64,000 nt of DNA from a virus, in the IMG/VR virus record IMGVR_UViG_3300014565_000223. One strand, given 5' to 3'. Below the pieces are notes generated by a model, which did no database searches, was not told the DNA's origin, and saw only the letters and a list, made by a program, of their open reading frames with translations. The stretch's first letter is position 1. Each line of letters starts with the position of its first letter. Positions 8,468 through 63,346 of this stretch are shown in pieces. Both the position numbers and the translations under genes were made by a program.

Positions 8468-9379
8468 ATGTATAACGAAGATAGAAAACAAAGGTTTTAC
8501 GAATTTAAGTTAAAAACTGTTGCAAGCGTTACTCCTCTTGTGCCTAGATTTAAGAGAGTTGCGCCGTTTGAACATATGTATCAAAAGGATTTATGTGACT
8601 TTAATTTAAATGAGATTACAGAAATGTATAAGTTGTTCAAATTTACAACATTAGAGTCCATTATTGTAGTAAATAATACTCTTACACAATATACGGACTG
8701 GTGTGTTAATGAGAATTTAGTGTTAAATGGACAAAATATCTATGCAACTATCACACCTGATATGCTGGCAGCACTATTAAATAAGACATTGTTAAATCAT
8801 CAGATTGTATCAAGAGACACGATTTTAACATGGATCGAAGCATTAAAGAATCCTAGAGATCGATTCATGATTCTGAGCATTTTTGAATATGGCAAGTCTA
8901 AAGATTTTGAAGACACGATTAGAGCAAAACTTGATGATATCGACGTAGAAAATCATACAATGAAATTGTATTCCGGAAGAGTTGTAAATGTAAGTGAAGC
9001 ATTAATTTTAACTGCACAAAAGAGTAATATGACAATGGAATTAACATATCCATATGGAACTAAATCCAAACTCATGGATGATGGAACCATTATAAAAAGA
9101 TCTCATATTGTAAAAGATGATCCGCATTGTCTTGGAAGGCAAATGTATAATTCATTAGCAGCAGCATTGAAGTCTATAGATGTATCATATATGACTGCTG
9201 AAAAAATTAACATTTCCGGACAAATTCATATGACAAATGAATTAATCCGGAAGTATAATTCAAATAAAAACAAGATTTTATATGATGTTGAAACTCGGTC
9301 TATGATTGAACACCAATATGGAATTAAGATTAATAGACCTTCATATTTTCTTAAAAAATATGGTGACTATTTAATATAG
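8468..9379 (+). CDS. hypothetical protein (303 aa)
   Basis: TAAATG junction with the upstream gene. Confidence 0.5.
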   Translation: MYNEDRKQRFYEFKLKTVASVTPLVPRFKRVAPFEHMYQKDLCDFNLNEITEMYKLFKFTTLESIIVVNNTLTQYTDWCVNENLVLNGQNIYATITPDMLAALLNKTLLNHQIVSRDTILTWIEALKNPRDRFMILSIFEYGKSKDFEDTIRAKLDDIDVENHTMKLYSGRVVNVSEALILTAQKSNMTMELTYPYGTKSKLMDDGTIIKRSHIVKDDPHCLGRQMYNSLAAALKSIDVSYMTAEKINISGQIHMTNELIRKYNSNKNKILYDVETRSMIEHQYGIKINRPSYFLKKYGDYLI

Positions 9380-18729: not shown

Positions 18730-18730
18730 A

Positions 18731-19498
18731 ATGGGATTTTTGGGAAAATTATTCGGAAAAAAAGATGAGGAAACAGCAGTAGAGTTATCTTCTGCTGTAA
18801 CTCAGCAACCTGTATATGAAGAAAAATTACAGACAATTGATATGTCTAAGCACAATGAAAATCTTGGCAAAGTACTTATTGATATGTCTAAGGGAAGCAA
18901 GATTGATATGACAAAACATACGGCTAGAGTAGCTCTTGCAATGGATTATTCAGGAAGTATGGATTGGCTGTATGATAATGGATCTGTACAGGAAACCATT
19001 TCTCGTTTGTTGCCTATTGCTCTAAGATTTGACGATAATGGAGAACTTGAGAGTTGGCTGTTCTCAAATGGAGCAGAGCGCTTAAAAGCTGCTAACGCTG
19101 ATAATTATAGTAGTTATGTTAAAAATGTTATGAAAAAAGCTCATATGTATATGGGTGGTACTAATTATGCTCCTGTATTGAAAGAAATGGTTACATATTA
19201 TAAAGATATCGAGCCAAGTGAGATTCCAGCATTTATCATCTTTATTACAGATGGTGAGAACAGTGATACTTTTGCCACCAATGCAGTTATTAAAGAGCTT
19301 TCAGAGTACAACATCTTCGTGCAGTTCATAGGAATTGGAGATGAAGATTTTGACTATTTAAAATCTCTTGATGGTATGAAAGGTAGAAAACATGACAACA
19401 CCGGTTTTACAGCAGTAAAAGACATGAATAAAATGTCTGATGAGCAGCTGTATACAGAGATTCTTCGTCAGTATAAAGATTGGCTCAATAAAAAATAA
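18731..19498 (+). CDS. von Willebrand factor A domain protein (TerY-like)
   Basis: MIDAS-like DYSGSM; sits beside a TerD-domain gene. Confidence 0.6.
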   Translation: MGFLGKLFGKKDEETAVELSSAVTQQPVYEEKLQTIDMSKHNENLGKVLIDMSKGSKIDMTKHTARVALAMDYSGSMDWLYDNGSVQETISRLLPIALRFDDNGELESWLFSNGAERLKAANADNYSSYVKNVMKKAHMYMGGTNYAPVLKEMVTYYKDIEPSEIPAFIIFITDGENSDTFATNAVIKELSEYNIFVQFIGIGDEDFDYLKSLDGMKGRKHDNTGFTAVKDMNKMSDEQLYTEILRQYKDWLNKK

Positions 19499-19557
19499 TT
19501 CTATACTGTAAATAATAAATTATATATAAATAACGTAAATTAAAGGAGATTAAGATT

Positions 19558-20196
19558 ATGGCAACAATTAATATGAGCAAAAAACAGAAAATCAGTATGA
19601 CAAAGGAAGATGGATCTGCAGTAAAGAATTTTTTTATTGGTGTGAACTGGGAGCAAAATAGATATGCCGGAGAAGCCGATATTGATTTTGACATCAATGG
19701 AATGCTTACTAATGGAGATCGGAAGGTGACATATCCGGGAGATTTGGTAAATTATAATACATATGGAGATGGATCTGCTTATCCGTGGATTGATTATTCC
19801 GGAGATAATCTCACTGGAAATGATTCTCAGGGCATGATGTTTAATGGAAAACATTACGATGAATATTTTATTGTCCACGCAGATCAGTTTCCGGAGAATA
19901 AAACAGACTTTACCATTTGTCTTACTATTTTTAGAGCGGTACAGCGCCTTCAGAATTTTGGTATGGTAAGTAATGCAACTATAATGATCTGTGATTATGA
20001 TAATCCAGACGGAGATAAGTACGAATATAATCTGTCTGAGAATGAGAATTTTGAAAATCTGAACGCTGTAGAGATGGGAAGGCTTTATAAATACGGAGAT
20101 GGATTTAAATTCCAGGCACTTGGATCAGGATATACCGGAGGAATGACAGAATTGTTTAAGAATTTCGGTCTTGACATTGATGAGGGAAGGGATTAA
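19558..20196 (+). CDS. TerD-domain protein
   Basis: ISMTKEDGSAVKNFFIGVNWE...DIDFDINGML matches the TerD/CAPAB signature (GLgWD...DLD). Confidence 0.6.
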   Translation: MATINMSKKQKISMTKEDGSAVKNFFIGVNWEQNRYAGEADIDFDINGMLTNGDRKVTYPGDLVNYNTYGDGSAYPWIDYSGDNLTGNDSQGMMFNGKHYDEYFIVHADQFPENKTDFTICLTIFRAVQRLQNFGMVSNATIMICDYDNPDGDKYEYNLSENENFENLNAVEMGRLYKYGDGFKFQALGSGYTGGMTELFKNFGLDIDEGRD

Positions 20197-49835: not shown

Positions 49836-50192
49836 ATGCCGGAACGTAACAGAGGGTATTTGAGAAAGCAAAGACTACGAAATATTGAACGTAGAAAAAA
49901 ATTAATAAGTCAACGAGAACTTATGTATCATGGATATAAAACTTTGAACGATCCTGATTTTAAAGAGGGGATGTTACATAAAGGACACAGTGGACGACTT
50001 GGCATGGGTGGAACTGCAGTAAAAACTAATACTCGTAAAGGACATGCTTCATATCGACATAAAGGTGCTTATGGTCAAGCTGATAATTATTCAAGACATG
50101 ATAAGCAGCAAGTTGAAGATGGAGCACAGCAAATTAAAGAATGGGAGAACGAAGATGGAAGAAGAGAAAAAGAAGGTTCTGATTGTAGTTGA
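49836..50192 (+). CDS. small basic protein (118 aa)
   Basis: Arg/Lys-rich N-terminus. Confidence 0.4.
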   Translation: MPERNRGYLRKQRLRNIERRKKLISQRELMYHGYKTLNDPDFKEGMLHKGHSGRLGMGGTAVKTNTRKGHASYRHKGAYGQADNYSRHDKQQVEDGAQQIKEWENEDGRREKEGSDCS

Positions 50193-50706
50193 TGTACAGA
50201 ATGATTTTGTAACCGGTTCACTTGGTACGCCGGAAGCCCAAGCTATTATTCCGAATGTAAAAGAGAAATTTGATGAATATAAGAATAATAAGAACTATGT
50301 AATTCTTACAAAGGATACTCATCATTCAGATTACGCAGATACTTCAGAGGGCAGAAAACTTCCTGAACATTGTATGTATGGTACTAAAGGTTGGGAAATT
50401 GTTGATGAACTTGATTATAAAAATCTCGATAGTTTTATGGTATGTTGTAAATCTACTTTTGGATTTGATGACTGGAATTGGGAAGAAATATTTAATACTA
50501 CAGATGGTTCTTTATTAGATATTGAAATTATTGGCATATGCACAGATATCTGTGTTATTACGAACGCTCTTTTGATTAAAACTTATTATCCAGAGGCAAA
50601 AATCACAGTTGATGCGTCATGTTGTGCCGGAACTACACCGGAGAAGCATAAAGCAGCACTTGATGTCATGGAAAGCTGTCAAATTAATGTGATAAATAAA
50701 AATTAA
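50155..50706 (+). CDS. isochorismatase-family hydrolase, nicotinamidase (PncA)-like
   Basis: LIVVDVQNDF N-terminal signature; catalytic Cys context IGICTDICV. ATG 50155. Confidence 0.65.
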   Translation: MEEEKKKVLIVVDVQNDFVTGSLGTPEAQAIIPNVKEKFDEYKNNKNYVILTKDTHHSDYADTSEGRKLPEHCMYGTKGWEIVDELDYKNLDSFMVCCKSTFGFDDWNWEEIFNTTDGSLLDIEIIGICTDICVITNALLIKTYYPEAKITVDASCCAGTTPEKHKAALDVMESCQINVINKN

Positions 50707-50714
50707 ATTAAACA

Positions 50715-51347
50715 ATGGAGGAAATCAAAATGATGAACAATTTTATGAATGGAATGTTTGGAAAAATCGGTAGTGGAATGTGCAAGTTATCCATGAGCGG
50801 TAATATTGCGGTAAAAACTTCTAATGGATATAAGAGTTACAATGTTAAATCCGGCAAGCTCACAAACTGTGGCAATTTCGTGTTTCCTGGAGTAGATGAA
50901 AACTTTTTCTTCGTCATTCCTACAAATAAGGTAACTAAAGGAGATATTATCCTTGTAAATGGCAAACCTAAGTGCGTCATCGAAGCAGATAAAACAAAGA
51001 TCACTGTAATCAATTATGAAGATTCTACAGTTGAAACAATTCTGCCGGAGCGCCATGTATTTATGGGAAATACTTATTTCTATGGAAAAATTGTATCTAT
51101 GTTCGGAAGTAATCTTGGAAAAGATAAGAATAGTGCAAATAAAATCTTTAAATATATGATGATGTCCCAGATGATGAATGGAGCGGCCGGTACCGGAACT
51201 GGAACAGACAGTAATCCAATGAGTGCTATGATGCCATTTATGATGATGAATGGTGGTATTGGTGATGTATTTGACGGTATGTTTGATTTTAGCATGGATG
51301 ATACAGACACAGAAGATAGTGAAGATGATTTAGAGGAGGATGAATAA
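50715..51347 (+). CDS. Met/Gly-rich protein with acidic C-terminal tail
   Basis: ATGGAGGAAATCAAAATG RBS. Confidence 0.45.
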   Translation: MEEIKMMNNFMNGMFGKIGSGMCKLSMSGNIAVKTSNGYKSYNVKSGKLTNCGNFVFPGVDENFFFVIPTNKVTKGDIILVNGKPKCVIEADKTKITVINYEDSTVETILPERHVFMGNTYFYGKIVSMFGSNLGKDKNSANKIFKYMMMSQMMNGAAGTGTGTDSNPMSAMMPFMMMNGGIGDVFDGMFDFSMDDTDTEDSEDDLEEDE

Positions 51348-51349
51348 TT

Positions 51350-52249
51350 ATGGGAAGCGGAAGTTGGGATACTAGAAGTTTTGTAAGTTATTCAACATCA
51401 AAAGGATATGGCACTGATTCACGAGGAGTAGTTACAGGAAGTTATTCTAATCAGGAAATGTTTAAAGCAAAAAATATTGATGCAGCACTCGATCCTAAAG
51501 GTGTTATTAGAGAATGTTGTGATAATGAAGAGCATCCGAATACTTTACCAGTCATTTTAGCTTTGGATGTCACAGGATCTATGGGACAGACCGCAGTAGA
51601 AATTGCAAAAAGACTTAATGAAATCATGACAAAATTATATGGTCAGATTAAAGATGTAGAATTTATGATTATGGGTATTGGTGATTTAGCATATGATAAT
51701 TATCCAATTCAGGCATCACAGTTTGAATCCGATATTAGAATTGCGGAGCAGCTTGATAAAATCTATTTTGAATTTGGCGGCGGAGGTAATTGTTTCGAGT
51801 CATATACTGCTGCTTGGTATTTTGGATCTCGTCATACAAAACTTGATTGTTGGAATAGGGGTAAAAAAGGCGTAATTATCACAATTGGGGACGAACGTCT
51901 TAATCCGTACTTACCAGTATCAGGACGACGCTCTGGATTAGGAATTACAACTGGCGATACGCTTCAGGCCGATGTAGAAACTAAAGATTTATATATGGAA
52001 ACATCTGAGAAATTTGATATTTATCACATTAATGTAAATCATCGTGATGGATATGACCAGAGAGGAATAGTTGAGTCTTTTTCAGAGTATCTTGATGATA
52101 ATCATTTTAGGACCATTAATCGTCTTGATGATATTGCAGATGAAATTGTAAAGATTGTAGTTGCGGCTGCAGAAAATAATGAACCTGTAGTAGTCTCATC
52201 CACTGTAATTTCTGCAGAGACAGATGAATCAGGAGCTATTGTTTGGTAA
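51350..52249 (+). CDS. von Willebrand factor A domain protein
   Basis: MIDAS motif LDVTGSMG. Confidence 0.6.
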   Translation: MGSGSWDTRSFVSYSTSKGYGTDSRGVVTGSYSNQEMFKAKNIDAALDPKGVIRECCDNEEHPNTLPVILALDVTGSMGQTAVEIAKRLNEIMTKLYGQIKDVEFMIMGIGDLAYDNYPIQASQFESDIRIAEQLDKIYFEFGGGGNCFESYTAAWYFGSRHTKLDCWNRGKKGVIITIGDERLNPYLPVSGRRSGLGITTGDTLQADVETKDLYMETSEKFDIYHINVNHRDGYDQRGIVESFSEYLDDNHFRTINRLDDIADEIVKIVVAAAENNEPVVVSSTVISAETDESGAIVW

Positions 52250-52261
52250 GGAGAATAACTT

Positions 52262-53371
52262 ATGAAAGATATAAAAATTGTCATCGGAGCAAACTTTGGT
52301 GACGAGGGCAAGGGTAAATTAACAGATTATTATACTAAAAATGCAGATAACTGTATCGTTGTGTGTTCAAATGGCGGTGCTCAAAGAGGACACACAGTAT
52401 TAAAATCAGACGGAACCCGGCATGTCTTTCATCATTTCGGCTCTGGAACATTAAACGGAGCAGATACTTATTTACCGGAGGATTTTATTTTAAATCCTCT
52501 GGTATTTAGGGAAGAATGGGAAGAGTTGAAGAAATTAGGATGGGAACCTTATGTGTACGTTCATGAACAATGTATGATTACGAATCCTCTTGATATGATG
52601 GCAAATCAAATTATTGAGCGAAGTCGCGGTAATAATAAACACGGAAGTTGTGGAATGGGTATTTATAATACCATTCAACGATATAAAAAGCATATTGATT
52701 CATATTCATTATCATGGACATATTATATGAACATGTTCAAAAACATGGGAATTACGTTATCTGAGCAGGAAGAAGAATTATTTCATCCCGTAAAAAATCC
52801 TGGGCTTCGAGACCATTACAATGAAGATCTTGATTTTATGATGTCTCATGTACATGTTGTAAATAATATTCAATTACTACTTAATGGATACGACACCATT
52901 GTGTTTGAAAATGGTCAGGGGCTTCTTTTGGATCAAAATAATACTGAATATTACCCACATCTTACACCATCAAATACTGGTATTAAGAATCCTGCCAGAA
53001 TTATAAAGGCTATAAGATGGACTGATGAAATTAATATAGAAGCTTGTTATGTGACACGTACATATATGACGCGGCATGGAGCCGGTGCGTTCCCAACTGA
53101 ATGTAATAAGGAAGAGATTAATCCGGACATCAAAGATTTAACCAATGTTCCAAATCCACATCAGGATACTTTGAGATATGGGAAGTTAAATGTGGAAGAA
53201 TTACATGAAAGATGTCAAGCAGACATAAAAACCTCTGGAATCCCATGTCGGAAGACATTGGCTATGACTCATATGAATGAATATTGCGAGTCTAATATAT
53301 CTCTTTATGAAATACATAAAATATTCAAAGATAACTGGAAATTAAAATTGTTTGAACGTGAGGAGAACTAA
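52262..53371 (+). CDS. adenylosuccinate synthetase-like protein, short form (PurA/PurZ family)
   Basis: N-terminal P-loop GANFGDEGKGKLTDYY matches the PurA signature GxQWGDEGKGK. At 369 aa it is shorter than bacterial PurA (~430), like archaeal PurA / phage PurZ. Confidence 0.6.
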   Translation: MKDIKIVIGANFGDEGKGKLTDYYTKNADNCIVVCSNGGAQRGHTVLKSDGTRHVFHHFGSGTLNGADTYLPEDFILNPLVFREEWEELKKLGWEPYVYVHEQCMITNPLDMMANQIIERSRGNNKHGSCGMGIYNTIQRYKKHIDSYSLSWTYYMNMFKNMGITLSEQEEELFHPVKNPGLRDHYNEDLDFMMSHVHVVNNIQLLLNGYDTIVFENGQGLLLDQNNTEYYPHLTPSNTGIKNPARIIKAIRWTDEINIEACYVTRTYMTRHGAGAFPTECNKEEINPDIKDLTNVPNPHQDTLRYGKLNVEELHERCQADIKTSGIPCRKTLAMTHMNEYCESNISLYEIHKIFKDNWKLKLFEREEN

Positions 53372-54169
53372 ATGATTAAATTAAACGACGTAGAAATCAA
53401 ACTTGATAAATATCCGGATGGAACATTCTTATTTAAGGATATTCCTCCTATTGGACCAAAAAACCTTATTGAATGGTTTTTTGAGTCAATGGAAGAAATG
53501 TCAGCAATTATTTATCTTACTCAATATTGTAAAGATCAGGGTACTGAAATTTATTTAGATATGCCATATATTCCTGATGCACGTATGGATAGAGTAAAAA
53601 AAAGAAAAGAAATCTTTACACTGAAATATTTTGCTCAAATTATTAACTTGTTGAATTTTAAACAGGTAGAAGTTTTAGATCCTCACTCTGATGTATCTGC
53701 CGCATTATTTAATAAAGTACATGTAGGAACCCCGAATCGAATGATTGAAACTGCTGTCAAGAAGATTGCTAGTAATAATCTCATGATGTTTTATCCAGAT
53801 GCGGGATCTATGAAAAGATATTCTTCAGCAGTACATCTTCCATATGCTTTCGGTATTAAGAATAGAGATTGGAAAACTGGAGAGATTAAAGGCTTAGATT
53901 TATCAGGTGAAATTGATCAGTTACCAGGTAAAGATATCCTTATTGTAGATGATATTTGTAGCAGAGGTGGTACTTTTTATTATAGTGCTAAAAAGCTGAA
54001 AGAGGCCGGTGTAGGTAAGATTTATCTTTATGTAACTCATTGTGAAAACACTATTTATGAAGGAGAACTTCTGAAAAATAATGGATTAATTGAGAAGATT
54101 TATACGACAGATACGATTTTGACAAATCTGGAAAGTCCTAAGATTGAATTGGTTGAGAGGTTTAGATAA
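53372..54169 (+). CDS. ribose-phosphate pyrophosphokinase-like protein (PRPP synthetase / Adps-like)
   Basis: PRPP-binding loop ILIVDDICSRGGT. 265 aa, shorter than canonical Prs. Confidence 0.6.
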   Translation: MIKLNDVEIKLDKYPDGTFLFKDIPPIGPKNLIEWFFESMEEMSAIIYLTQYCKDQGTEIYLDMPYIPDARMDRVKKRKEIFTLKYFAQIINLLNFKQVEVLDPHSDVSAALFNKVHVGTPNRMIETAVKKIASNNLMMFYPDAGSMKRYSSAVHLPYAFGIKNRDWKTGEIKGLDLSGEIDQLPGKDILIVDDICSRGGTFYYSAKKLKEAGVGKIYLYVTHCENTIYEGELLKNNGLIEKIYTTDTILTNLESPKIELVERFR

Positions 54170-54217
54170 GGAGGAATATTATGAAACAAATTATTATTCC
54201 TTTAGGGTGGTGAGAAA

Positions 54218-54688
54218 ATGAAAGAAATTTTAGGAAATAATCTTGAACAATTCTTTTTTGTATTATTAGATTTATTAGATTACCAAAAAGAATGTGGAGC
54301 GATATGCACATACAAGAGTAATAGATATGAAGTTTGGTTAATGTATGATGAAACATTTAATAGGATCTCAGATATGTCAGAAGAAGAATTTGTTAAATTC
54401 GCAGGTGAAGATGCTTGGTGGAGAAGTAGCAATGGTAGTGTATTATATTCACTTGATAAAGGAGAAATAACAATTAATCATAAGAAAATGATTGGATGGA
54501 TTAGAAAACCTGGGGATGAAGAAATATCAACAGATATTGAATATTCATCATTAACAGAATATTTATGTGAATTTATTGGGGCTTCTACACCTCATAATGT
54601 TGTTGCTTGTGCAATGGATTTGGGTAAATTTAATCATTTGACAATGGGTAGATTGTTTAAAAAATATGAACCAGTGGAGGATGAATGA
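54218..54688 (+). CDS. hypothetical protein (156 aa)
   Basis: GGGTGGTGAGAAAATG RBS. Confidence 0.45.
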   Translation: MKEILGNNLEQFFFVLLDLLDYQKECGAICTYKSNRYEVWLMYDETFNRISDMSEEEFVKFAGEDAWWRSSNGSVLYSLDKGEITINHKKMIGWIRKPGDEEISTDIEYSSLTEYLCEFIGASTPHNVVACAMDLGKFNHLTMGRLFKKYEPVEDE

Positions 54689-54983
54689 AGAAATGATGTT
54701 TACAGTTTGTAATGTTCCAAAGTTTTTAGAGGAACAGATGAATAAAATGAAAGACACTATTACGAGTGATATGAATGAAGATAATCTTAAAGGTTATGAG
54801 TATGCAGTTGAAACTATGTTAAGTATTATTAGACAGACAATTCATGCTGCCGAGATGGATGATGAAATTCTTGTGCATAGCGATAAGATTGCTGATGAGA
54901 ACGATATTGAAGAGTTTGATTTACATGATTTGTTAGGACTTTATGGTTGTAGAGTTGTGGCACAGAAAGAATTTGAAGAATAA
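54681..54983 (+). CDS. hypothetical acidic protein
   Basis: ATG 54681 with GTGGAGG RBS. Confidence 0.4.
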   Translation: MNEEMMFTVCNVPKFLEEQMNKMKDTITSDMNEDNLKGYEYAVETMLSIIRQTIHAAEMDDEILVHSDKIADENDIEEFDLHDLLGLYGCRVVAQKEFEE

Positions 54984-55061
54984 TACATGCAAAAAAGCAA
55001 TCTTTTTTCGGAGAATCAATGTGAAATATGAAAGAATGCAAGAGGAATGGAGAAATAGTAT

Positions 55062-55403
55062 ATGAAAGCACAGATTTGCGAAACGTGTGTACATAAACAT
55101 GATAGATGTTATTGCAGTCCGAATAGTACATGTGATAAGTATAAGAAAATTCAAATGGTAGAAAAGAAATCATGGGAAGAATTTAAGAATAACGGATTTC
55201 TCTGGTGGATTAATATGATTTTACATACATTCGGATGGGCGATTTGTGTAGATATCGAAGAAGACGGATCAGTTTCAAATGCTTATCCTGCCAGAGTAAA
55301 ATTCAGAGGATTTGCAGAGAAGAATAATACAGATGGTTATATTAAAGTCAGTCAATATTTGAAAGACAATGTGGACGAGCTTGTAAAAGAAGCGAATGAT
55401 TAA
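55062..55403 (+). CDS. Cys-rich protein (CETCVHKHDRCYCSPNSTC) with TM segment
   Basis: ORF. Confidence 0.4.
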   Translation: MKAQICETCVHKHDRCYCSPNSTCDKYKKIQMVEKKSWEEFKNNGFLWWINMILHTFGWAICVDIEEDGSVSNAYPARVKFRGFAEKNNTDGYIKVSQYLKDNVDELVKEAND

Positions 55404-55412
55404 GGAGGAGTT

Positions 55413-56888
55413 ATGAATAATACTTTAGCAATTTTACTTTCAGATACATATAAACAAATTCATAATAAAATCTATCCAAAAGGATTAACAAAACTTGTTT
55501 CCTACTGGACTCCACGACGATCAATGCTTAAGAATCAGAACAAAATGGTATTCTTTGGTCTACAGGCATTTATTGAAGAATATCTGATTGATTATTTTAA
55601 TAAAAACTTTTTTGAATTAACAGCAGCAGAAGTTGAGCATACATATAAATACAGTATGGATATACAGTTAGGAAATAGTTATGACCTAGAGCCTATTATA
55701 AAACTTCATAAATTAGGCTATCTTCCAATTCGGATTCGTGCTATTCCGGAAGGAACATTGGTACCAATGGGTATTCCATGTATTGAAATTACAAATACAC
55801 ATCCAGATTTTGCTTGGGTAGTACAGTGGATCGAATGTATCCTGCAGGTTGAACTCTGGAAACCATGTGCTCATGCAACAATTGGTCATATGTATAGAGA
55901 ACTTGCAAATGACTACTATAAAATGACCTGTGATGACTTTTTAAGACCTGAAATGGCCTGCTCAGACTTTGGTATGAGAGGAATGTCTTGTATGGAAGAG
56001 GCCGTGAGATGCTCGTCTGCTTGGTTATTATCATTTGATAAGACAAGCACAATTCCTGCTATTGATTATATAGATACATATTATGATGCTTGCTGTTGGA
56101 CTGAAAGAATCGGAATTGGTGCTGTATCAACAGAACATTCAGTTATGGCTTCAAATTATGCAGTAGACGGTGATGAAATCACATTTGTAAAAAGACTACT
56201 TACGGAACTATATCCTAATGCATCTTTTAGTATGGTATCTGACACTTATGATTACTGGAACATGATTGATAATATTCTTCCGGCTTGTAAAAAAGAAATC
56301 ATGCAGCATAATGGCAAACTTCTGGTCCGTCCAGATTCCGGAGATATGGTAGAAATTGCTGTAGAGACAATTGAAAAGCTTTGGAATACATTCGGCGGAA
56401 CAGTAAATAGCAAAGGATATAAAGTACTTGATTCTCACATTGGAATTATCTATGGAGACGGATGTACTCTTAATAATGTAAAGCAGGTATGGGAAGAACT
56501 GAAGAAAAAAGGATTTGCTGCAAACAATATCGTATTCGGAGTCGGAGCATTTTGCTTCTCAGCAGTTATAGAACCTGATGGATACATGGTTGTTGTAACT
56601 AGAGATATGTTTGGCATTGCTATGAAAGCTACATATGGAATCGTCAACGGTGAACCAATTATGATTTATAAAGATCCCAAAACCGATACGAGTCATTTGA
56701 AAAAATCTCATAAAGGGTGTTGTTGTATATATTACGATGACAATGGAGAATTACAGTGTGAAGACGGGTATAATGATGTATTTCGTGACGGAGCGTTAAG
56801 TACCGTATTTGTAGATGGGAAAGCTTGCAATAAAGAAACATTTGAAGACATTAGAGAAAGATTAAACGGAGGAAACAAAGATGAGTAA
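55413..56888 (+). CDS. nicotinamide phosphoribosyltransferase family (Nampt / NadV; could be the Namat variant)
   Basis: Collinear with Nampt: DTYK (DSYK), FFGLQ, IRAIPEGTLVP...WIECILQ, DFGMRG, SDTYD, VRPDSGD, NSKGYKVL...YGDG. Confidence 0.85.
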   Translation: MNNTLAILLSDTYKQIHNKIYPKGLTKLVSYWTPRRSMLKNQNKMVFFGLQAFIEEYLIDYFNKNFFELTAAEVEHTYKYSMDIQLGNSYDLEPIIKLHKLGYLPIRIRAIPEGTLVPMGIPCIEITNTHPDFAWVVQWIECILQVELWKPCAHATIGHMYRELANDYYKMTCDDFLRPEMACSDFGMRGMSCMEEAVRCSSAWLLSFDKTSTIPAIDYIDTYYDACCWTERIGIGAVSTEHSVMASNYAVDGDEITFVKRLLTELYPNASFSMVSDTYDYWNMIDNILPACKKEIMQHNGKLLVRPDSGDMVEIAVETIEKLWNTFGGTVNSKGYKVLDSHIGIIYGDGCTLNNVKQVWEELKKKGFAANNIVFGVGAFCFSAVIEPDGYMVVVTRDMFGIAMKATYGIVNGEPIMIYKDPKTDTSHLKKSHKGCCCIYYDDNGELQCEDGYNDVFRDGALSTVFVDGKACNKETFEDIRERLNGGNKDE

Positions 56889-57354
56889 AATTACAGATTA
56901 TTTATTAAAAGATGATGTAATTGTAGTAATGGATGTGGACGGTGTGCTTGCTCCATATGAATTTTCAGAACTGAGTCACAGTATGACTGATGATGAATGG
57001 GATAGACTTGTAGCTTCCGGTGAGAATCCGTATAAAGATGTACGTCCGATTAAATTAATGCAAGAGTTTATTCAGAAGAAAGGTATTGATAAAGTATATA
57101 CCTGTTCAAAGAGTCCTTTCAGTGAGATCCCCGGCAAAAGAGCTTTTATCAAAGATAATTACGGCCTTCCGGATGATAATATCTATTTTACTTTAGAAAA
57201 GACAGAAAAACTTACTGTGCTTCAGACGCTGCAACAAAAGCTTGGGCTTAAGCCGTCTCAGATTGCAATTGTAGAGGATACAGTAAAAACTTTGGATTAT
57301 ATTCGTGCACATAGTGATTTTGTAACTGTACACGTTTCATCATTTATGGAGTAA
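56881..57354 (+). CDS. HAD-superfamily 5'(3')-deoxyribonucleotidase-like (NT5C family)
   Basis: N-terminal VVMDVDGVLAPYEF matches the NT5C DMDGVLADFE motif. Confidence 0.5.
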   Translation: MSKITDYLLKDDVIVVMDVDGVLAPYEFSELSHSMTDDEWDRLVASGENPYKDVRPIKLMQEFIQKKGIDKVYTCSKSPFSEIPGKRAFIKDNYGLPDDNIYFTLEKTEKLTVLQTLQQKLGLKPSQIAIVEDTVKTLDYIRAHSDFVTVHVSSFME

Positions 57355-57369
57355 AGAGGAGTAAAGAGA

Positions 57370-57909
57370 ATGAATTTACAAAGTATTAGTAGATATATAA
57401 GTCTTATATTAAGACATAAGCCTGAAGTTATTGGTATTACTATAGATGAACATGGTTGGGCGAATGTAGAAGAACTGATTCAGGGTATCGCTAAAAACAA
57501 TCCCGGATTCAACAAAGAATTTTTAGAGGAAATTGTACGGACTGACAATAAGCAGCGATATTCTTTCAATGATGACAAGACATTGATCAGAGCGAATCAG
57601 GGACATTCAATTCCGGTAGATGTAGAACTGGAAGAGAAAGAGCCACCTAAAATTCTTTATCATGGAACTGGCGAGAAATATATAGCGTCTATTGATCAGA
57701 ATGGACTGATTCCTAAAAGTCGTTTATATGTTCATTTGTCAAAAGATGTTGAAACCGCCAAAGCTGTCGGCAAGAGACATGGTAAAGAAGTTGTTTATTC
57801 TATCAATAGTGAACAGATGTACAAAGATGGATACAAATTTTACTTATCTAAAAATGGAGTTTGGCTGACTAAAAGGGTTCCAGTGAAATATTTAATGAAG
57901 GAGGTATAA
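57370..57909 (+). CDS. RNA 2'-phosphotransferase Tpt1/KptA family
   Basis: N-terminal [13 protein letters not shown] signature of Tpt1; HGT and R-rich catalytic region; 179 aa. Confidence 0.7.
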
Positions 57910-57911
57910 AA

Positions 57912-58319
57912 ATGAGTAGTACATATTTTACGGATTCAGTTTCAGATCTTTGTCAGGGGATTGTTGATAAAGCAGATACTTATGAAAAACGAATTAAATA
58001 CTTAGAAGAAGAAAACAAGAAGCTCAAAGATGAGCATTATAAAGATTCTGAAATGCAGAGAATGGAAGCAGAATTGAAAAAAGCGAAAGAGGATCTGTAT
58101 AGAGGATTTCCAATTTCAGAAAAAGAACAAGAGAAAATCAGAGAGTGGGAATTAAAACATGATGCTGAGAAACATGGTTTGAAAACTATGGAACAGAGAG
58201 CAATGGGACATGGTTGCATAGGCGGCTCTCTTACATGGTGCTTTACACCAACATCAATCGGAACTATTGGAGAAGTGATTTGCTCCTGTGGTGAGAAGTT
58301 TACATTTCAGGATTTATAG
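57912..58319 (+). CDS. coiled-coil protein with C-terminal Cys cluster
   Basis: ORF; HGCIGG...CSCGE. Confidence 0.4.
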   Translation: MSSTYFTDSVSDLCQGIVDKADTYEKRIKYLEEENKKLKDEHYKDSEMQRMEAELKKAKEDLYRGFPISEKEQEKIREWELKHDAEKHGLKTMEQRAMGHGCIGGSLTWCFTPTSIGTIGEVICSCGEKFTFQDL

Positions 58320-58329
58320 GAAAAGATTT

Positions 58330-58830
58330 ATGATTAAAATTATTGAAGGTAATATCGTTAATGCAAAGACAGATTTTATAATTCATCAGGTTAACTGCCA
58401 AGGAGAAATGAACACTGGAGTTGCTAAAGCATTAAGAGATTATGATGAAGGTATTTATAAACACTATAGAAAGTTTTGTGAATTTTGTAAGTTCGAGTCG
58501 GAAAAACTACTCGGAACGTGTGATACATATTTCTTGAAAGATAGATGTCAAATTGTATTGTCTTTATTCGCACAAAATAAATATGGATATGATGGTAAAC
58601 AGTATACAGATCTTGAAGCTTTTAGAGAAGGTTTAAGATATATTTCGCAACATTTTGGAGTATGGTGTGAAATAAATGGACCAGAGGGAAAAGATCTTCG
58701 TAGAATCTCAGTAGCGCTTCCGTATAAGATTGGTTGTGGAAGAGGGGGAGCAGACTGGGAAATGGTTTATAAAATCATTGAAGAGGAACTTAAAGATTAT
58801 GATGTGGAATTATGGAGGCTGGATGAATGA
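58330..58830 (+). CDS. macro domain protein (ADP-ribose / Appr-1''-p processing)
   Basis: IIHQVNCQGEMNTGVAKAL matches the macro-domain N-terminal motif. ATG 58330. Confidence 0.6.
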   Translation: MIKIIEGNIVNAKTDFIIHQVNCQGEMNTGVAKALRDYDEGIYKHYRKFCEFCKFESEKLLGTCDTYFLKDRCQIVLSLFAQNKYGYDGKQYTDLEAFREGLRYISQHFGVWCEINGPEGKDLRRISVALPYKIGCGRGGADWEMVYKIIEEELKDYDVELWRLDE

Positions 58831-59252
58831 GCGAGGCGATGAATATTATTATAGCCGGTTCACGAGATTTTGATGATTATCGTTTGCTTAAGAAAACTGT
58901 GTCAGATTATATCGAAGAGAATCAAGTTAATAACACTCAGCAAATTAGAGTTATCAGTGGTGGTGCAAAAGGTGCAGATAGGCTTGGTGAATGTTATGCG
59001 TTTGATAATGGTTACTCCGTTATAAGATTTCAAGCGTTATGGGGAGTTTATGGAAAGTCTGCTGGCCCTAGACGTAATAATGAAATGGCAAAATTTGCAT
59101 CAGAATCAGGCTCTGGTACGTTGATCGCATTTTGGGATGGTGAATCGCGAGGTACAAAAAATATGATTGATACTGCAAGAAGATATGGATTACATGTAAT
59201 TGTAGTTGAATATGAAAAAGATTCGGAGGAATTAAATGAACAGAAAAGATAA
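58827..59252 (+). CDS. SLOG-superfamily protein (DUF2493 / Smf-DprA-LOG like)
   Basis: Rossmann-like AGSRDF, GGAKGADRLGE and WDGESRGT motifs. Confidence 0.45.
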   Translation: MSEAMNIIIAGSRDFDDYRLLKKTVSDYIEENQVNNTQQIRVISGGAKGADRLGECYAFDNGYSVIRFQALWGVYGKSAGPRRNNEMAKFASESGSGTLIAFWDGESRGTKNMIDTARRYGLHVIVVEYEKDSEELNEQKR

Positions 59253-59520
59253 TACATTAGAAGGAATAGGTGCGTTTACAGTAATCATCCTTGCGATTTT
59301 CACTCTTGTTATTAGTCCGGCATTATCATTTATGTTTGCTTACATAGGTGGATGTATACTGAAATTTTTTGTAGGGGACGCATTGGTTAATGGATTAAAT
59401 ATCATATTTAATACAACTAGATTTACGAAACCAATGATCCCTGTTATTTGTGCAACAATTGCAACAATTGGTAAATATTTTAAAACAACAGTCGATATGT
59501 CAAGACATAAAGGACAGTAG
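59236..59520 (+). CDS. small membrane protein (94 aa)
   Basis: Two hydrophobic helices. Confidence 0.4.
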   Translation: MNRKDNTLEGIGAFTVIILAIFTLVISPALSFMFAYIGGCILKFFVGDALVNGLNIIFNTTRFTKPMIPVICATIATIGKYFKTTVDMSRHKGQ

Positions 59521-59574
59521 GAGTTACATATAAATTCTTATGAAAGTAAGAAAGGAACTGCAGGAGGAATCAAA

Positions 59575-59934
59575 ATGAAAAAGGTAACTACTATATTAAT
59601 TCTTCTGCTTATCAGTGCATTTATGTTGACTGGTTGCGCTAAATGTATTGATAAGAAAGAAGAAAGTGTAAAAGTCAAAATTGTTAATGAATACTATAAA
59701 CCGAAAGAAACTCGTTTCATAGGTATAATTAATCATGTTCCACAATTTCGGACAGATTATGCCGAGTATGAAATTACGGTAGACTATAACGGAGTGGAAT
59801 ATTCACTTAGTGATGAAAGTACATATCGTAAATATCATGGAAGAATAGGACAAACAGTGTCTGCCGTATTGATTACAAAGACATATGATAATGGCAATGT
59901 TAAACAATATATTAATTGTTTAGGAGGATTATAA
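59575..59934 (+). CDS. putative lipoprotein
   Basis: Signal peptide plus lipobox LTGC; GGAGGAATCAAAATG RBS. Confidence 0.5.
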   Translation: MKKVTTILILLLISAFMLTGCAKCIDKKEESVKVKIVNEYYKPKETRFIGIINHVPQFRTDYAEYEITVDYNGVEYSLSDESTYRKYHGRIGQTVSAVLITKTYDNGNVKQYINCLGGL

Positions 59935-59935
59935 G

Positions 59936-60697
59936 ATGAAATATTACGATGGATATTTTAAAGAACTCAAGAATGAAATTGTACAGTGGATCAGAGACTG
60001 GTTCGATCAGAATGGTCCCGGCTGCAATGCAATTGTAGGAATCTCTGGTGGAAAAGATTCTTCTGTAGTAGCAGCGCTTTGTGCAGAAGCTCTTGGAAAA
60101 GATCGTGTAATTGGTGTACTGATGCCACAGGGTCAGCAGAAAGATATTTATGCTGCGTATAAGCTTTGTGAATTTCTTGATATTAAATCATACGAAATCA
60201 ACATTGGCGACACAGTTCGAAGTGTATTGTCAAGACTCGAAAGCTCAGGAATCGAGATCAGCGAACAGACAAAAATAAATCTTCCGGCACGTATTAGAAT
60301 GTCTACATTATATGCTGTCTCTCAGTCTTGTAATGGAAGAGTAGCAAATACATGTAATCTTTCAGAATCATATGTCGGTTATGAAACCAGGTATGGTGAT
60401 TCGGCAGGGGATTTTAGTCCGTTAGGAAAATTAACTGTATATGAAGTTAAAAAACTTGGATATGAATTATTGCTTCCTACAGAACTTATTGAAAAGATTC
60501 CAATTGATGGATTATGTGGAAAGACAGATGAGGACAATTTAGGATTCCCATATGAAGTTCTGGACAGATATCTTCGTACAGGAGAGATTGACGATCTGGC
60601 TGTAAAAGCTAAGATTGATTTAATGCATAAACGATGTCTCTTCAAATCAGAGAAGATTCCGGTATTTAATCCTGAATTAAAAGTGGAGGCAGAATAA
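59936..60697 (+). CDS. nadE: NH3-dependent NAD+ synthetase
   Basis: PP-loop GISGGKDSS; 253 aa. Confidence 0.8.
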   Translation: MKYYDGYFKELKNEIVQWIRDWFDQNGPGCNAIVGISGGKDSSVVAALCAEALGKDRVIGVLMPQGQQKDIYAAYKLCEFLDIKSYEINIGDTVRSVLSRLESSGIEISEQTKINLPARIRMSTLYAVSQSCNGRVANTCNLSESYVGYETRYGDSAGDFSPLGKLTVYEVKKLGYELLLPTELIEKIPIDGLCGKTDEDNLGFPYEVLDRYLRTGEIDDLAVKAKIDLMHKRCLFKSEKIPVFNPELKVEAE

Positions 60698-60957
60698 TGG
60701 AGAACATATTTATATCATTCTTGTTAATCGAAATTCTTTTCACAACAATTTTAATAATTAATTGTGCAATTGATGAATTATTACCAATAAAAGAATATAA
60801 AAAGTGGTCCCAAAATAAAAATTGGTTCGGTAAGATATATATATTTCTTACAGTTATATTTACTATTCCTGCAGCAATTATTATATATATCGCTTTTTCC
60901 ATTGTGTTCTTAGTAACATTTATTTATACACTTGGAATTAAAGAGGAGAAGAAATAA
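60697..60957 (+). CDS. small membrane protein (86 aa)
   Basis: Two TM helices. Confidence 0.4.
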   Translation: MENIFISFLLIEILFTTILIINCAIDELLPIKEYKKWSQNKNWFGKIYIFLTVIFTIPAAIIIYIAFSIVFLVTFIYTLGIKEEKK

Positions 60958-60958
60958 C

Positions 60959-61507
60959 ATGAAACCATATGATGTTGGGCTTGTTTGTGGGCGTTTTCAA
61001 ACGTTCCACAAAGGCCATGAAAAACTTATTGATACTGGTTTGTTGATTTGTGATCGGATGCTCATTCTTGTTGGTAGTGCTCAAGAATGCGGGACAGAAC
61101 GTAATCCTTTGAATGTCAATACTAGAATCAAGATGATACGTGAAGTGTATGGTGATAATCCGAATATTATGATTTATGCATTATCAGACCTTACTGATGA
61201 AAATGATATCACACCAGATTGGGGTAGATATCTTCTTCAAAATGCAGATCGATATATTTATAAAAATCCAGATGTAATGATTTATGGTAATGATGATAGC
61301 CGGAGTGGATGGTTCGACAAGAAAGATTTAAAGAACACAACCGAATTAATAATTAATCGTGAAGAATTACCCATCTCTGGGACCATGTTGAGAGCACTTA
61401 TGATACAGGATAAACGGCGAGAATGGATGACTTTTGTTAATCCTAAGTTACATAAAATGTATGATGAAATTCGTAGTGAACTTATGGAAAGCATAAAGGA
61501 GAATTAA
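60959..61507 (+). CDS. nicotinamide/nicotinate mononucleotide adenylyltransferase (archaeal/NadM-type NMNAT)
   Basis: VGLVCGRFQTFHKGHEKLI, the (H/T)xGH nucleotidyltransferase motif. ATG 60959 after AAGAGGAGAAGAAATAAC. Confidence 0.75.
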   Translation: MKPYDVGLVCGRFQTFHKGHEKLIDTGLLICDRMLILVGSAQECGTERNPLNVNTRIKMIREVYGDNPNIMIYALSDLTDENDITPDWGRYLLQNADRYIYKNPDVMIYGNDDSRSGWFDKKDLKNTTELIINREELPISGTMLRALMIQDKRREWMTFVNPKLHKMYDEIRSELMESIKEN

Positions 61508-62136: not shown

Positions 62137-62813
62137 TGAAATATAAAGGTACTTACAGACTAAAAGCTGCAATAGATCAAAGTACCAATGATTATCCCAG
62201 AGATGATTCTGGAGGAATAGATCCAAGCTTTGATGATATTTATATTAAGTGTTATGGTGGTGCTCAAATATATCATTATGGTTTTTCTACTCTTGTAGCT
62301 TATATCCCATCTATAGGAAGAGGACACAATATTTTAAAAGCTATAGCTAATGATATTGGGTTACCGGAATATGAAACTTATGAAGAATTATATAAGGCAC
62401 TTGAAGATGAAGGAACTGTACGAAGTATCATGGAAAACGACAAAGAAATAGAGTTTAAGTTCCATGCTCGTAAGTTAGAATACATAGCACTTTTTCTTAA
62501 ACCTGCGATTGCAGGAGCTGATATTAGTCCTTTCTCGACTAAGAACTTACCCAAATGTAATTACCCTATTCCTGAGGAAGATTTAGCAGAATACAACGCT
62601 ATTTTGGATTCTATGGACAGTAAGGATTACTTGTTAGTCTCTAGGGTAACCGATGCTTTTTTGACCAATAAACTTCAAAAAAGTAAGCAGTATAGGACAA
62701 TTGATTTGAAAAAAGATATGAAGAAAAAATGTTTAAAAACTAAAGAATATATCCATTCATTAGGCGAATGGAATGAATATATTGAATATTTAAAAAAGGA
62801 GATTTGTAAATGA
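62121..62813 (+). CDS. hypothetical protein (230 aa)
   Basis: ORF. Confidence 0.5.
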   Translation: MAKYLMKYKGTYRLKAAIDQSTNDYPRDDSGGIDPSFDDIYIKCYGGAQIYHYGFSTLVAYIPSIGRGHNILKAIANDIGLPEYETYEELYKALEDEGTVRSIMENDKEIEFKFHARKLEYIALFLKPAIAGADISPFSTKNLPKCNYPIPEEDLAEYNAILDSMDSKDYLLVSRVTDAFLTNKLQKSKQYRTIDLKKDMKKKCLKTKEYIHSLGEWNEYIEYLKKEICK

Positions 62814-63346
62814 AAAGAATAGCAAAGTTTGAAAAAGTGAGCTTAGAAGAATTCATGAAAGATTGGTGTGATACATTCGAATTAGACGCCTCTGATGCTG
62901 ACACGAGACGTGAAATAGAAGGCATTTATGGTAGTATTGAACTTCCTAAAAGAGCAACAGTAGGAAGTGCCGGTTATGACTTCTTCACACCGCTTACACT
63001 TAATATGAAACCAGGTGAAACAGTAAAAGTGCCAACTGGAATTAGATGTAAGATTGATGAAGGATGGGTACTGAAATGCTATCCAAGAAGCGGCCTTGGA
63101 TTCAAATACCGTCTGCAGCTTGATAATACAGTAGGTATCATCGACAGTGATTACTATGATTCTGATAATGAAGGTCATATCTTTATTAAAGTTACTAATG
63201 ATAGTAAAAGACCATGGAAAACTCTTAATGTACTTCGCGGAGAAGGATTCGCTCAGGGTATTTTTGTTGAATATGGTATTACTATTGATGATGAAGCAAC
63301 AGGCATAAGAAATGGCGGATTTGGAAGTACAACAGAGAATAAATAG
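62810..63346 (+). CDS. dut: dUTP diphosphatase
   Basis: dUTPase motifs GSAGYDF, GIIDSDYY and RNGGFGSTT. Confidence 0.85.
   Translation: MKRIAKFEKVSLEEFMKDWCDTFELDASDADTRREIEGIYGSIELPKRATVGSAGYDFFTPLTLNMKPGETVKVPTGIRCKIDEGWVLKCYPRSGLGFKYRLQLDNTVGIIDSDYYDSDNEGHIFIKVTNDSKRPWKTLNVLRGEGFAQGIFVEYGITIDDEATGIRNGGFGSTTENK

Follow-up and report, generated by a model that had tools for sequence, protein, structure and literature searches.

A conserved phage module of PncA, Adps, an altered-pocket Namat and NadE, predicted to be a deamidated derivative of the NAD+ reconstitution pathway NARP1

The 64,000-nucleotide stretch of viral DNA in the IMG/VR record IMGVR_UViG_3300014565_000223 (hereafter the window) encodes a nicotinamidase (PncA), a Prs-like enzyme of the Adps clade, a Nampt-family enzyme of the Namat clade, a macro domain protein and an NH3-dependent NAD+ synthetase (NadE). 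Adps and Namat are the two enzymes of the phage NAD+ reconstitution pathway NARP1, known from Bas63, SPbetaL1 and FADO (Osterman et al. 2024, bioRxiv 10.1101/2024.02.11.579819). PncA, Adps, Namat and NadE, usually together with the macro protein, form a conserved module in which the pyridine pocket of Namat is changed at two positions, and this pocket change co-occurs strictly with PncA and NadE. The module is read here as a deamidated derivative of NARP1 with a macro phosphatase and a role in counter-defence, a reading to which we give a probability of roughly 0.55 and every enzymatic step of which we infer from sequence.

An earlier note on this DNA had proposed a cluster of six NAD-related open reading frames (ORFs) linked to the phage NAD+ reconstitution pathways described in 2024. 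All six were recovered on the + strand at the coordinates in Table 1, and the relation to these pathways is upheld. The clustering is not due to chance, because many independent metagenome contigs share this arrangement of genes.

Clade assignment and the altered pocket of Namat

By sequence comparison, the single Nampt-family gene of the window belongs to the Namat clade of NARP1 and not to the Nampt clade of NARP2. Its product scores 395 bits against the solved Namat 9w5x, the sequence of which (9w5x/9w5w) carries the Namat motif GSFTYQYNTRD, versus 200 bits against human Nampt, and its best phage relatives in tblastn searches include the characterised NARP1 phages SPbetaL1 and FADO. In both the alignment and a neighbour-joining (NJ) tree calculated in numpy from Kimura distances, it groups with Namat, at a large distance from the NARP2-type Nampts of nt-1, RB43 and phiCbK, the clade of which is set apart by a long branch and by a GGGLLQ motif absent from the window protein. 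Models of PncB reach only about 23 bits on this protein, and no other gene of the NAPRTase family was found in the Pfam annotation of sibling contigs, which cover nearly all of the window outside about 21.8-23.8 kb. The choice between Nampt, Namat and PncB, which the earlier note had left to phylogeny and profile searches, is thereby answered, at the level of phylogeny, in favour of the Namat clade. Its suggestion that Nampt plus Nmnat correspond to NARP2 is not supported, as the sole Nampt-family gene groups apart from the Nampts of KVP40, nt-1, RB43 and phiCbK; of the idea that the phage holds parts of both pathways, the NARP1-type pair and the Nmnat stand, and the NARP2-clade Nampt does not.

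The Prs-like protein is a member of the Adps clade and is predicted to convert ADP-ribose (ADPR) to ADP-ribose pyrophosphate (ADPR-PP). It scores under the cut-off of the Prs family (TIGR01251, 95.9 vs 113), and the best solved Prs reaches only 57 bits against it; its identity to the Adps proteins of SPbetaL1 and FADO is 42% and 35%, respectively. In an NJ tree with the Prs proteins of E. coli and human as outgroup, its branch falls within the group formed by the verified Adps of SPbetaL1, FADO and ICP1, with 94% support for the enclosing clade. As in verified Adps, the N-terminal ~20 amino acids of Prs and its C-terminal helices alpha11-12 are missing, and R87, H121, D161, K185, D212 and D213 are kept, with Y in place of F18. 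The assignment rests on phage reference sequences and a published residue list, since no solved Adps structure was detected in a sequence search of the PDB. By phylogeny, the choice between Prs and Adps has thus fallen to the Adps clade, and the resemblance of the pair to NARP1 that had been noticed before is borne out by tree and alignment.

The residues of Namat are numbered here as in SPbetaL1, and the features of pocket and clamp are those of the Namat structure paper (PMC12774641). In the crystal structure, D215 forms a hydrogen bond with the amide of nicotinamide and A242 also lines the pocket, and the exchange D215A leads to an 8-fold loss of activity with nicotinamide (PMC12774641). 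Alignment to the solved Namat shows that both positions are S in the window protein, which conserves the other residues of the nicotinamide pocket (F189, R192, R306, D13' and Y15') and keeps the catalytic His (TEHSVM), R306 and D308; the flanking motifs SF..T.TIPA and TEHSVM make this alignment unambiguous. In human Nampt, Asp219 defines the substrate specificity (PMC7096376), and D219S "switches the substrate affinity" whereas D219A is inactive (PMC4919578, citing Khan et al. 2006). S215 of the window protein occupies the structural position of this Asp219. The switch in Nampt D219S is reportedly one toward nicotinic acid. The window Namat is predicted to be a nicotinate ADP-ribose transferase that yields nicotinic acid adenine dinucleotide (NaAD).

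The lineage of the window also differs in the selectivity-clamp helix, which has a 9-10 amino acid insertion and reads GAFCFS-AVIEPDGYM-VVTRD, compared with GSFTYQ-YNTRD in canonical Namat. The first of the two aromatic residues that stack on the adenine is kept as F (position 3), the second (Y396, position 7) is replaced by V, and R40 and S391 are changed to M and A, respectively.

Co-occurrence of the pocket change with PncA and NadE

The first examples of the variant were MT835544 from human faeces, in which Adps, Namat, macro, NadE and PncA lie in this order within about 5 kb, and phage Phass-1 with an overlapping PncA-Adps-Namat-x-NadE operon. Together with the loci from an IMG/VR scan seeded on the variant, these make up a set of 82 variant loci (Namat identity 33-99%), every one of which has S or A at position 215 and S at position 242. 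Adps is encoded in 81 of them, PncA in 80, NadE in 74 and the macro protein in 71, mostly in contiguous or overlapping genes, and most absences of PncA, NadE or another core gene fall at contig ends. Seven loci in GTDB genomes share this pocket and, within the reach of each contig, encode PncA and/or NadE. Distant relatives from a related-locus search served as a mixed test set, and in mixed scans the variant pocket was present in 4 of 18 IMG/VR loci and in 12 of 80 metagenome loci, again with PncA and/or NadE. This amounts to about 105 loci with the variant pocket, each of which encodes PncA and/or NadE wherever its contig extends far enough.

By contrast, neither PncA nor NadE was found at any of 161 control loci with D or E at position 215 and A at position 242. 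These comprise 80 loci from an IMG/VR scan seeded on canonical Namat (all D215/A242, 75 with Adps) and the canonical subsets of the mixed scans in IMG/VR (13 loci) and in metagenomes (68 loci, with detection by profile hidden Markov models). INPHARED has 1540 records with Adps-like genes, compared with 15 for PncA-like genes and 49 for NadE. From an exhaustive search of 1.84 billion cluster representatives, the 149 nearest Namat clusters were examined, among which the two positions co-vary almost perfectly, with 95 clusters of the D/A type and about 44 with A, S or V at 215 and S at 242, so that ~30% have the variant pocket. The variant occurs widely among phages and prophages of gut anaerobes.

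At least four variant lineages are distinct by sequence, a number that does not count origins on a rooted tree: an insertion-bearing gut clade (100% bootstrap), Phass-1, a group with the motif GSFSMQ.. and the loci L207-L211. Phass-1 keeps both stacking aromatics of the clamp (GAYTYQYVTRD), and L207-L211, with the gene order Adps-PncA-Namat-NadE, have a fully canonical clamp (GSYTYQYNTRD); both combine A215/S242 with PncA and NadE. This argues that ADPR-PP is still the donor and that the pyridine substrate has changed.

The closest solved relative of the window PncA is the pyrazinamidase/nicotinamidase of P. horikoshii (1ilw), followed by PncA of M. tuberculosis and yeast Pnc1. Its triad D13/K99/C133 and the metal ligands D54/H56/H72 align to the P. 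horikoshii enzyme and show no variation among 68 unique homologs encoded in variant modules. The same holds for the SGGxDS PP-loop in 66 unique homologs of NadE, which itself scores 177.6 against the TIGR00552 cut-off of 63.65 and is predicted to convert NaAD to NAD+. As their active-site residues are invariant across the family, both proteins appear to be under selection as active enzymes. They had been regarded previously as additional Preiss-Handler enzymes, which does not fit the absence of a PncB-family gene and the status of both as core genes that are co-inherited with the altered-pocket Namat.

The macro protein matches the macro domain of DarG (5m31, E 2e-6) and yeast Poa1p (6lfu, E 2e-3) in the PDB as well as PHROG 335, annotated 'phosphatase', and is homologous (E 1e-17) to the 'phosphatase' encoded between Adps and Namat in Vibrio phage K470. 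It is predicted to be an ADPR-1''-phosphate phosphatase similar to Adpp. In the window its gene is the fourth after Namat, and in many relatives it follows Namat directly; relatives such as L053, L059 and L064 fall within the two-gene distance discussed below.

The 6.9-kb contig JAIRJQ010000079.1 (L105) from a metagenome-assembled genome (MAG) of Methanomassiliicoccaceae encodes a variant-pocket Namat, 50% identical to that of the window, together with PncA and Adps. This is either a case of mis-binning or an archaeal virus with the module.

The proposed route, its rivals and known phage systems

In the proposed route, nicotinamide freed by NAD+-cleaving defence enzymes would be converted by PncA to nicotinic acid and NH3, and Adps would use ATP to turn ADPR into ADPR-PP, with release of AMP. 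The Namat variant would then join nicotinic acid and ADPR-PP to NaAD and pyrophosphate, and NadE would form NAD+ from NaAD, ATP and NH3. The macro protein would contribute further ADPR to the pathway by dephosphorylation of ADPR-1''-phosphate, which could originate from RES-type phosphorolysis of NAD+ or from the product of the phage Tpt1 after ring opening. Tpt1/KptA consumes NAD+ and releases nicotinamide and ADPR-1'',2''-cyclic phosphate, the ring opening of which is established chemistry in tRNA splicing. The NMNAT, the HAD phosphatase coupled to Namat, Tpt1, the SLOG protein and the PurA-like gene would be extras acquired in this prophage lineage.

That this amounts to a fourth route of NAD+ reconstitution ("deamido-NARP1"), in which the phage deamidates nicotinamide, makes NaAD with a re-specified Namat and re-amidates it with its own NadE, is a proposition with about even odds. 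The driving force may be hosts with a strong nicotinamidase, or defences that remove nicotinamide, either of which would starve canonical NARP1. Gut bacteria deamidate nicotinamide efficiently through gut microbial PncA, and a speculative rationale for the route would be that nicotinic acid is the available pyridine in the gut.

ADPR-PP is favoured as the donor because the Prs-like enzyme belongs to the Adps clade, because NMNAT is missing from 74 of the 82 modules, because Phass-1 and L207-L211 keep the clamp aromatics together with the variant pocket and because 71 modules encode the macro protein, known from the architecture of NARP1-AP, which makes sense only with ADPR as a substrate. Several points weigh against the route. 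The clamp of the window lineage is remodelled, so that a preference for ADPR-PP is not assured and PRPP (phosphoribosyl pyrophosphate) could be the donor, and canonical Namat is able to use PRPP in vitro (PMC12774641). The window also has an NMNAT that the route through NaAD does not need, and together with the degraded clamp this makes a route through PRPP and nicotinic acid mononucleotide (NaMN) a live rival for this phage. The advantage of the extra ATP spent on NaAD is unexplained, and the activities of all enzymes of the module are predictions. Finally, the variant loci are related by descent and their counts are not independent events, and the search pattern ATEHSVM had partly dictated A242 in the 80-locus IMG/VR control beforehand, though not D215.

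In the rival just named, which we consider rather unlikely, the window would encode a self-contained Preiss-Handler pathway: the Prs-like enzyme would make PRPP, the transferase NaMN, and the phage NMNAT or host NadD would form NaAD for NadE to finish. A possible Francisella-like order would have NadE amidate NaMN to nicotinamide mononucleotide (NMN), from which the NadM-type NMNAT would make NAD+. The position of NMNAT two genes after NadE and the degraded adenine clamp would suit such a pathway, as would the PRPP-dependent activity that Namat clamp mutants retain (PMC12774641), the fact that the D219S switch concerns a PRPP-using enzyme (PMC4919578), and the pncB-nadD-nadE clusters described in gut jumbo phages (PMC11662467). 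It is difficult to reconcile with the placement of the Prs-like protein within the clade of verified Adps and its score under the Prs cut-off, with the rarity of NMNAT, with the ADPR-1''-phosphate macro phosphatase of 71 modules, which would have no role, and with lineages that share the pocket change, PncA and NadE and have the canonical ADPR-PP clamp. A very improbable alternative is a canonical hybrid of NARP1 and NARP2 that still works on nicotinamide, with PncA and NadE as unrelated helpers of host PncB and NadD. All three of the Adps-like, Namat-like and Nmnat genes are present and Namat has residual Nampt activity in vitro (PMC12774641), but there is no NARP2-clade Nampt, and the Asp that binds nicotinamide is lost in every member, in large subclades to the Ala that inactivates Nampt and is 8-fold deleterious in Namat. 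Moreover, a Namat that depended on nicotinamide would lose its substrate to the nicotinamidase of the phage, and PncA and NadE accompany none of the 161 canonical loci.

The same chemistry might also serve a housekeeping purpose, that is, the top-up or recycling of NAD+ for LigA, Tpt1 and ADP-ribosyl-processing enzymes, or a benefit to the lysogen. This is a decidedly unlikely explanation even though the window encodes LigA, Tpt1, an ADP-ribosylglycohydrolase and an RNA ligase, Tpt1 and the macro domain would together give ADPR for recycling, and the island lies beside the integrase end of a temperate phage, a typical place for genes that benefit the lysogen. In 68 of the 82 loci the core module occurs without Tpt1, the parent systems NARP1 and NARP1-AP are counter-defence systems by experiment, and defence NADases yield precisely ADPR and nicotinamide. 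As to the window NMNAT under the deamidated route, it could re-ligate NMN from defences that split NAD+ into AMP and NMN (Metis), or mop up mononucleotides from side reactions with PRPP.

The phage NAD+ systems known so far are NARP1, NARP2, NARP3 and NARP1-AP. The window module resembles NARP1 in having an Adps-clade enzyme beside a Namat-clade enzyme, and SPbetaL1 in particular in that both are SPbeta-like temperate phages with the module near the genome end. It differs from NARP1 in the two pocket positions (D215 to S, or to A in sister clades; A242 to S), in the clamp-helix insertion of the window lineage, in the presence of PncA and NadE, and in the predicted product of the transferase, which is NaAD and not NAD+. 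In NARP1-AP, known from Vibrio phage Gary, Adps and Namat are joined by the macro phosphatase Adpp (Osterman et al. 2026, bioRxiv 10.64898/2026.01.28.702374). The macro protein of the window is homologous to the phage "phosphatase" of such Adps-phosphatase-Namat operons, but its gene falls outside the "within two genes" rule used in that paper, and PncA, NadE and the altered pocket are added. NARP2 combines a Nampt of the KVP40 clade, which prefers PRPP, with Nmnat in Vibrio phage KVP40 (bioRxiv 10.1101/2024.02.11.579819). The window shares with it an Nmnat and, in principle, a way to NAD+ via a mononucleotide, but has no NARP2-clade Nampt, and its Nmnat is a rare accessory without a Nudix domain. 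The window does not contradict the statement by Osterman et al. that NARP1 and NARP2 do not occur together in any phage. With the Preiss-Handler pathway and the clusters of gut jumbo phages, the module has in common the deamidated intermediates, the final position of NadE and the gut ecosystem, but it has neither a PncB-family enzyme nor NadD, its phosphoribosyltransferase-family member is of the Namat clade and paired with Adps and a macro phosphatase, and its predicted entry point is ADPR and not PRPP. The likeness to Nampt D219S is that of Ser for Asp at the same structural position; here, however, it is a natural, conserved substitution in a clade of phage ADPR-transferases, which comes with A242S and with enzymes that supply nicotinic acid and consume the deamidated product.

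The variant module is apparently undescribed: no literature linking NARP1 or ADPR-PP to nicotinic acid, nicotinamidase or NadE was found, in a search of incomplete coverage that leaves room for an earlier description elsewhere. The aRES paper says only that further genes are sometimes present in NARP1 operons, and of these it follows up the macro domain. NAD+ depletion is among the commonest bacterial strategies against phages, and the module, if correctly interpreted, would add a route to the contest between phages and bacteria over NAD+, in which NAD+ is rebuilt via the deamidated branch by phage enzymes only. It would entail a new enzyme activity, that of a nicotinate:ADPR-PP ADP-ribosyltransferase (a NaAD-making Namat), and a two-residue rule (D215/A242 versus S or A at 215 with S242) by which two kinds of Namat can be separated in annotation. 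It would also imply that gut anaerobes, with their rapid deamidation of nicotinamide, differ ecologically from other hosts in the NAD+ arms race, and that some defence or host trait, still to be discovered, makes nicotinamide unavailable.

The prophage and the accessory genes of the island

The element in the window is a large SPbeta-like prophage of gut Clostridia, as it has an SPbeta-type gene set outside the island (YorH-like protein, PolIII alpha, RecD-like helicase, NrdD/G, LigA, RNA ligase and ADP-ribosylglycohydrolase) and as its sibling contigs continue from the dUTPase gene into Xis, integrase and host genes. In the siblings, Xis and a tyrosine integrase are seen ~200 bp past the window end (about 64200-65700, as projected from L003), followed by NuoE/NuoF-like host genes, which places the NAD island at the attachment-site end of the prophage. 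The element is recorded in metagenomes and IMG/VR only, and a near-identity DNA search of INPHARED gave no match. The exact Namat protein of the window occurs in 172 blocks of a metagenome collection, mostly in human gut assemblies; the nearest genome-resolved relatives are a prophage of Ruminococcus sp. AM36-2AA, with a 77% identical Namat variant, and Lachnospiraceae MAGs. Between 48 and 64 kb the genes are closely packed and all lie on the + strand, with a GC content of ~33% (Table 1). A scan for promoters and terminators found no more sites than in shuffled sequence and is uninformative on the limits of operons. The prophage nature of the element had gone unmentioned in the earlier note, as had the macro, YspA/SLOG and PurA-like genes; its LigA at 9813 and its Tpt1 were both confirmed.

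Table 1. Genes of the NAD island and the following dUTPase gene, in window coordinates
Feature	Coordinates	Strand	Evidence
Nicotinamidase, PncA-like; core	50155-50706	+	Pfam Isochorismatase, 81 bits
ORF p210; lineage-specific cassette	50715-51347	+	No significant Pfam match
vWA-like ORF p299; lineage-specific cassette	51350-52249	+	DVTGSMG, metal ion-dependent adhesion site (MIDAS)-like motif; no significant Pfam match
Short PurA-like enzyme, 369 aa; accessory	52262-53371	+	Pfam Adenylsucc_synt, 132 bits
Adps-clade Prs-like enzyme; core	53372-54169	+	PHROG 619, 231 bits
Three small ORFs (156, 105 and 113 aa)	54218-55403	+	No family assignment; polymorphic insertion
Namat-clade transferase; core	55413-56888	+	NAMPT_N + NAPRTase; NF006629, 469 bits
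HAD-superfamily phosphatase	56881-57354	+	DxDG motif; AlphaFold2 (AF2) fold
Tpt1/KptA RNA 2'-phosphotransferase; accessory	57370-57909	+	Pfam PTS_2-RNA, 165 bits
135-aa protein accompanying the macro gene	57912-58319	+	No family match
Macro domain, Poa1p/DarG type; near-core	58330-58830	+	PDB and PHROG 335 matches
YspA/SLOG-family protein; accessory	58827-59252	+	Pfam YAcAr, 50 bits
Two small ORFs (94 aa, hydrophobic; 119 aa, lipoprotein-like signal)	59236-59934	+	No family match; lineage-specific
NadE, NH3-dependent NAD+ synthetase; core	59936-60697	+	Pfam NAD_synthase, 178 bits
86-aa hydrophobic ORF between NadE and NMNAT	60697-60957	+	No family match
NMNAT, archaeal/NadM type; accessory	60959-61507	+	NF002243, 62 bits, below cut-off
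dUTPase	62810-63346	+	Family search

The Namat gene lies 1.2 kb downstream of adps on the same strand, and the gap is taken up by the polymorphic insertion of three ORFs, one of which has a faint match to a PspA-associated protein. The insertion is recent and splits the operon, as it is present in only 4-5 of the relatives with >95% identity, and Adps and Namat are close neighbours in the others.

The HAD phosphatase, present in 22 of the 82 variant loci, has the invariant residues D18, D20, K86 and E132-D133, and its AF2 model (pLDDT, the model confidence score, 92.9) shows a capless HAD-phosphatase fold with KdsC and MDP-1 as best fold matches; no named homologs of the protein were found. 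Its former label of an NT5C-type nucleotidase was rejected, with no Pfam NT5C match and only a weak one to HAD-IA, the deoxyribonucleotidase-like 3bwv coming at fold rank 25. The Namat and HAD genes overlap by 8 nt at 56881-56888 (ATGAGTAA) and are translationally coupled, and at two loci (L028, 8676-10625; L035, 9992-11944) they form one ORF of 650-651 amino acids, which is either a natural fusion or an A-run frameshift. The overlap and the single ORF suggest that the phosphatase works with the transferase.

The best solved relatives of the NMNAT are MJ0541, the NMNAT of M. thermoautotrophicum and NadM, and its motifs read GRFQTFHKGH and ISGT..R. It is found in 8 of the 82 loci, each time accompanied by the 86-aa ORF. 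At locus L054 (9368-9955), an NMNAT 79% identical to that of the window is inserted between Adps and Namat, which indicates that NMNAT moves as a cassette among modules.

The remaining accessories, that is, Tpt1, SLOG or NADAR, the PurA-like cassette and the three-ORF insertion, are all patchy among near-identical phages. Tpt1 (NF002014, 261.1 vs a cut-off of 239) is present in 14 of the 82 variant loci, the YspA/SLOG gene in 7, and 29 loci have the 135-aa gene immediately before the macro gene. The PurA-like gene, the stop codon of which abuts the ATG of Adps, belongs with p210 and p299 to a cassette that separates PncA from Adps in 13 of the 82 loci and is also found in a Ruminococcus prophage, and p210 and p299 always occur together with it. 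Its match to PHROG 1211 (PurZ-like, 296 bits) raised the possibility of a PurZ of the Z-genome type, which an NCBIfam PurZ score of only 45 vs 300 does not support; the corresponding PurA score is 107 vs 402. At the position equivalent to ~59520-59575 of the window, siblings carry NADAR and a 190-aa ORF (L007, 13709-14711; L008, 14121-15123), sometimes instead of SLOG, and this slot is a hot spot for the swapping of ADP-ribose-related genes.

Some 30 kb upstream of the island lie an ADP-ribosylglycohydrolase (PF03747, 23834-24613) and an RNA ligase (PF09414, 25887-26807), which together with Tpt1 and LigA give the phage further enzymes for NAD+ and ADP-ribose handling and for RNA repair. Elsewhere, the window encodes a P-type cation ATPase, a vWA-TerF-like protein and TerD at 16108-20196, and a DndB-like protein with an MrpR-type recombinase at 7187-9379.

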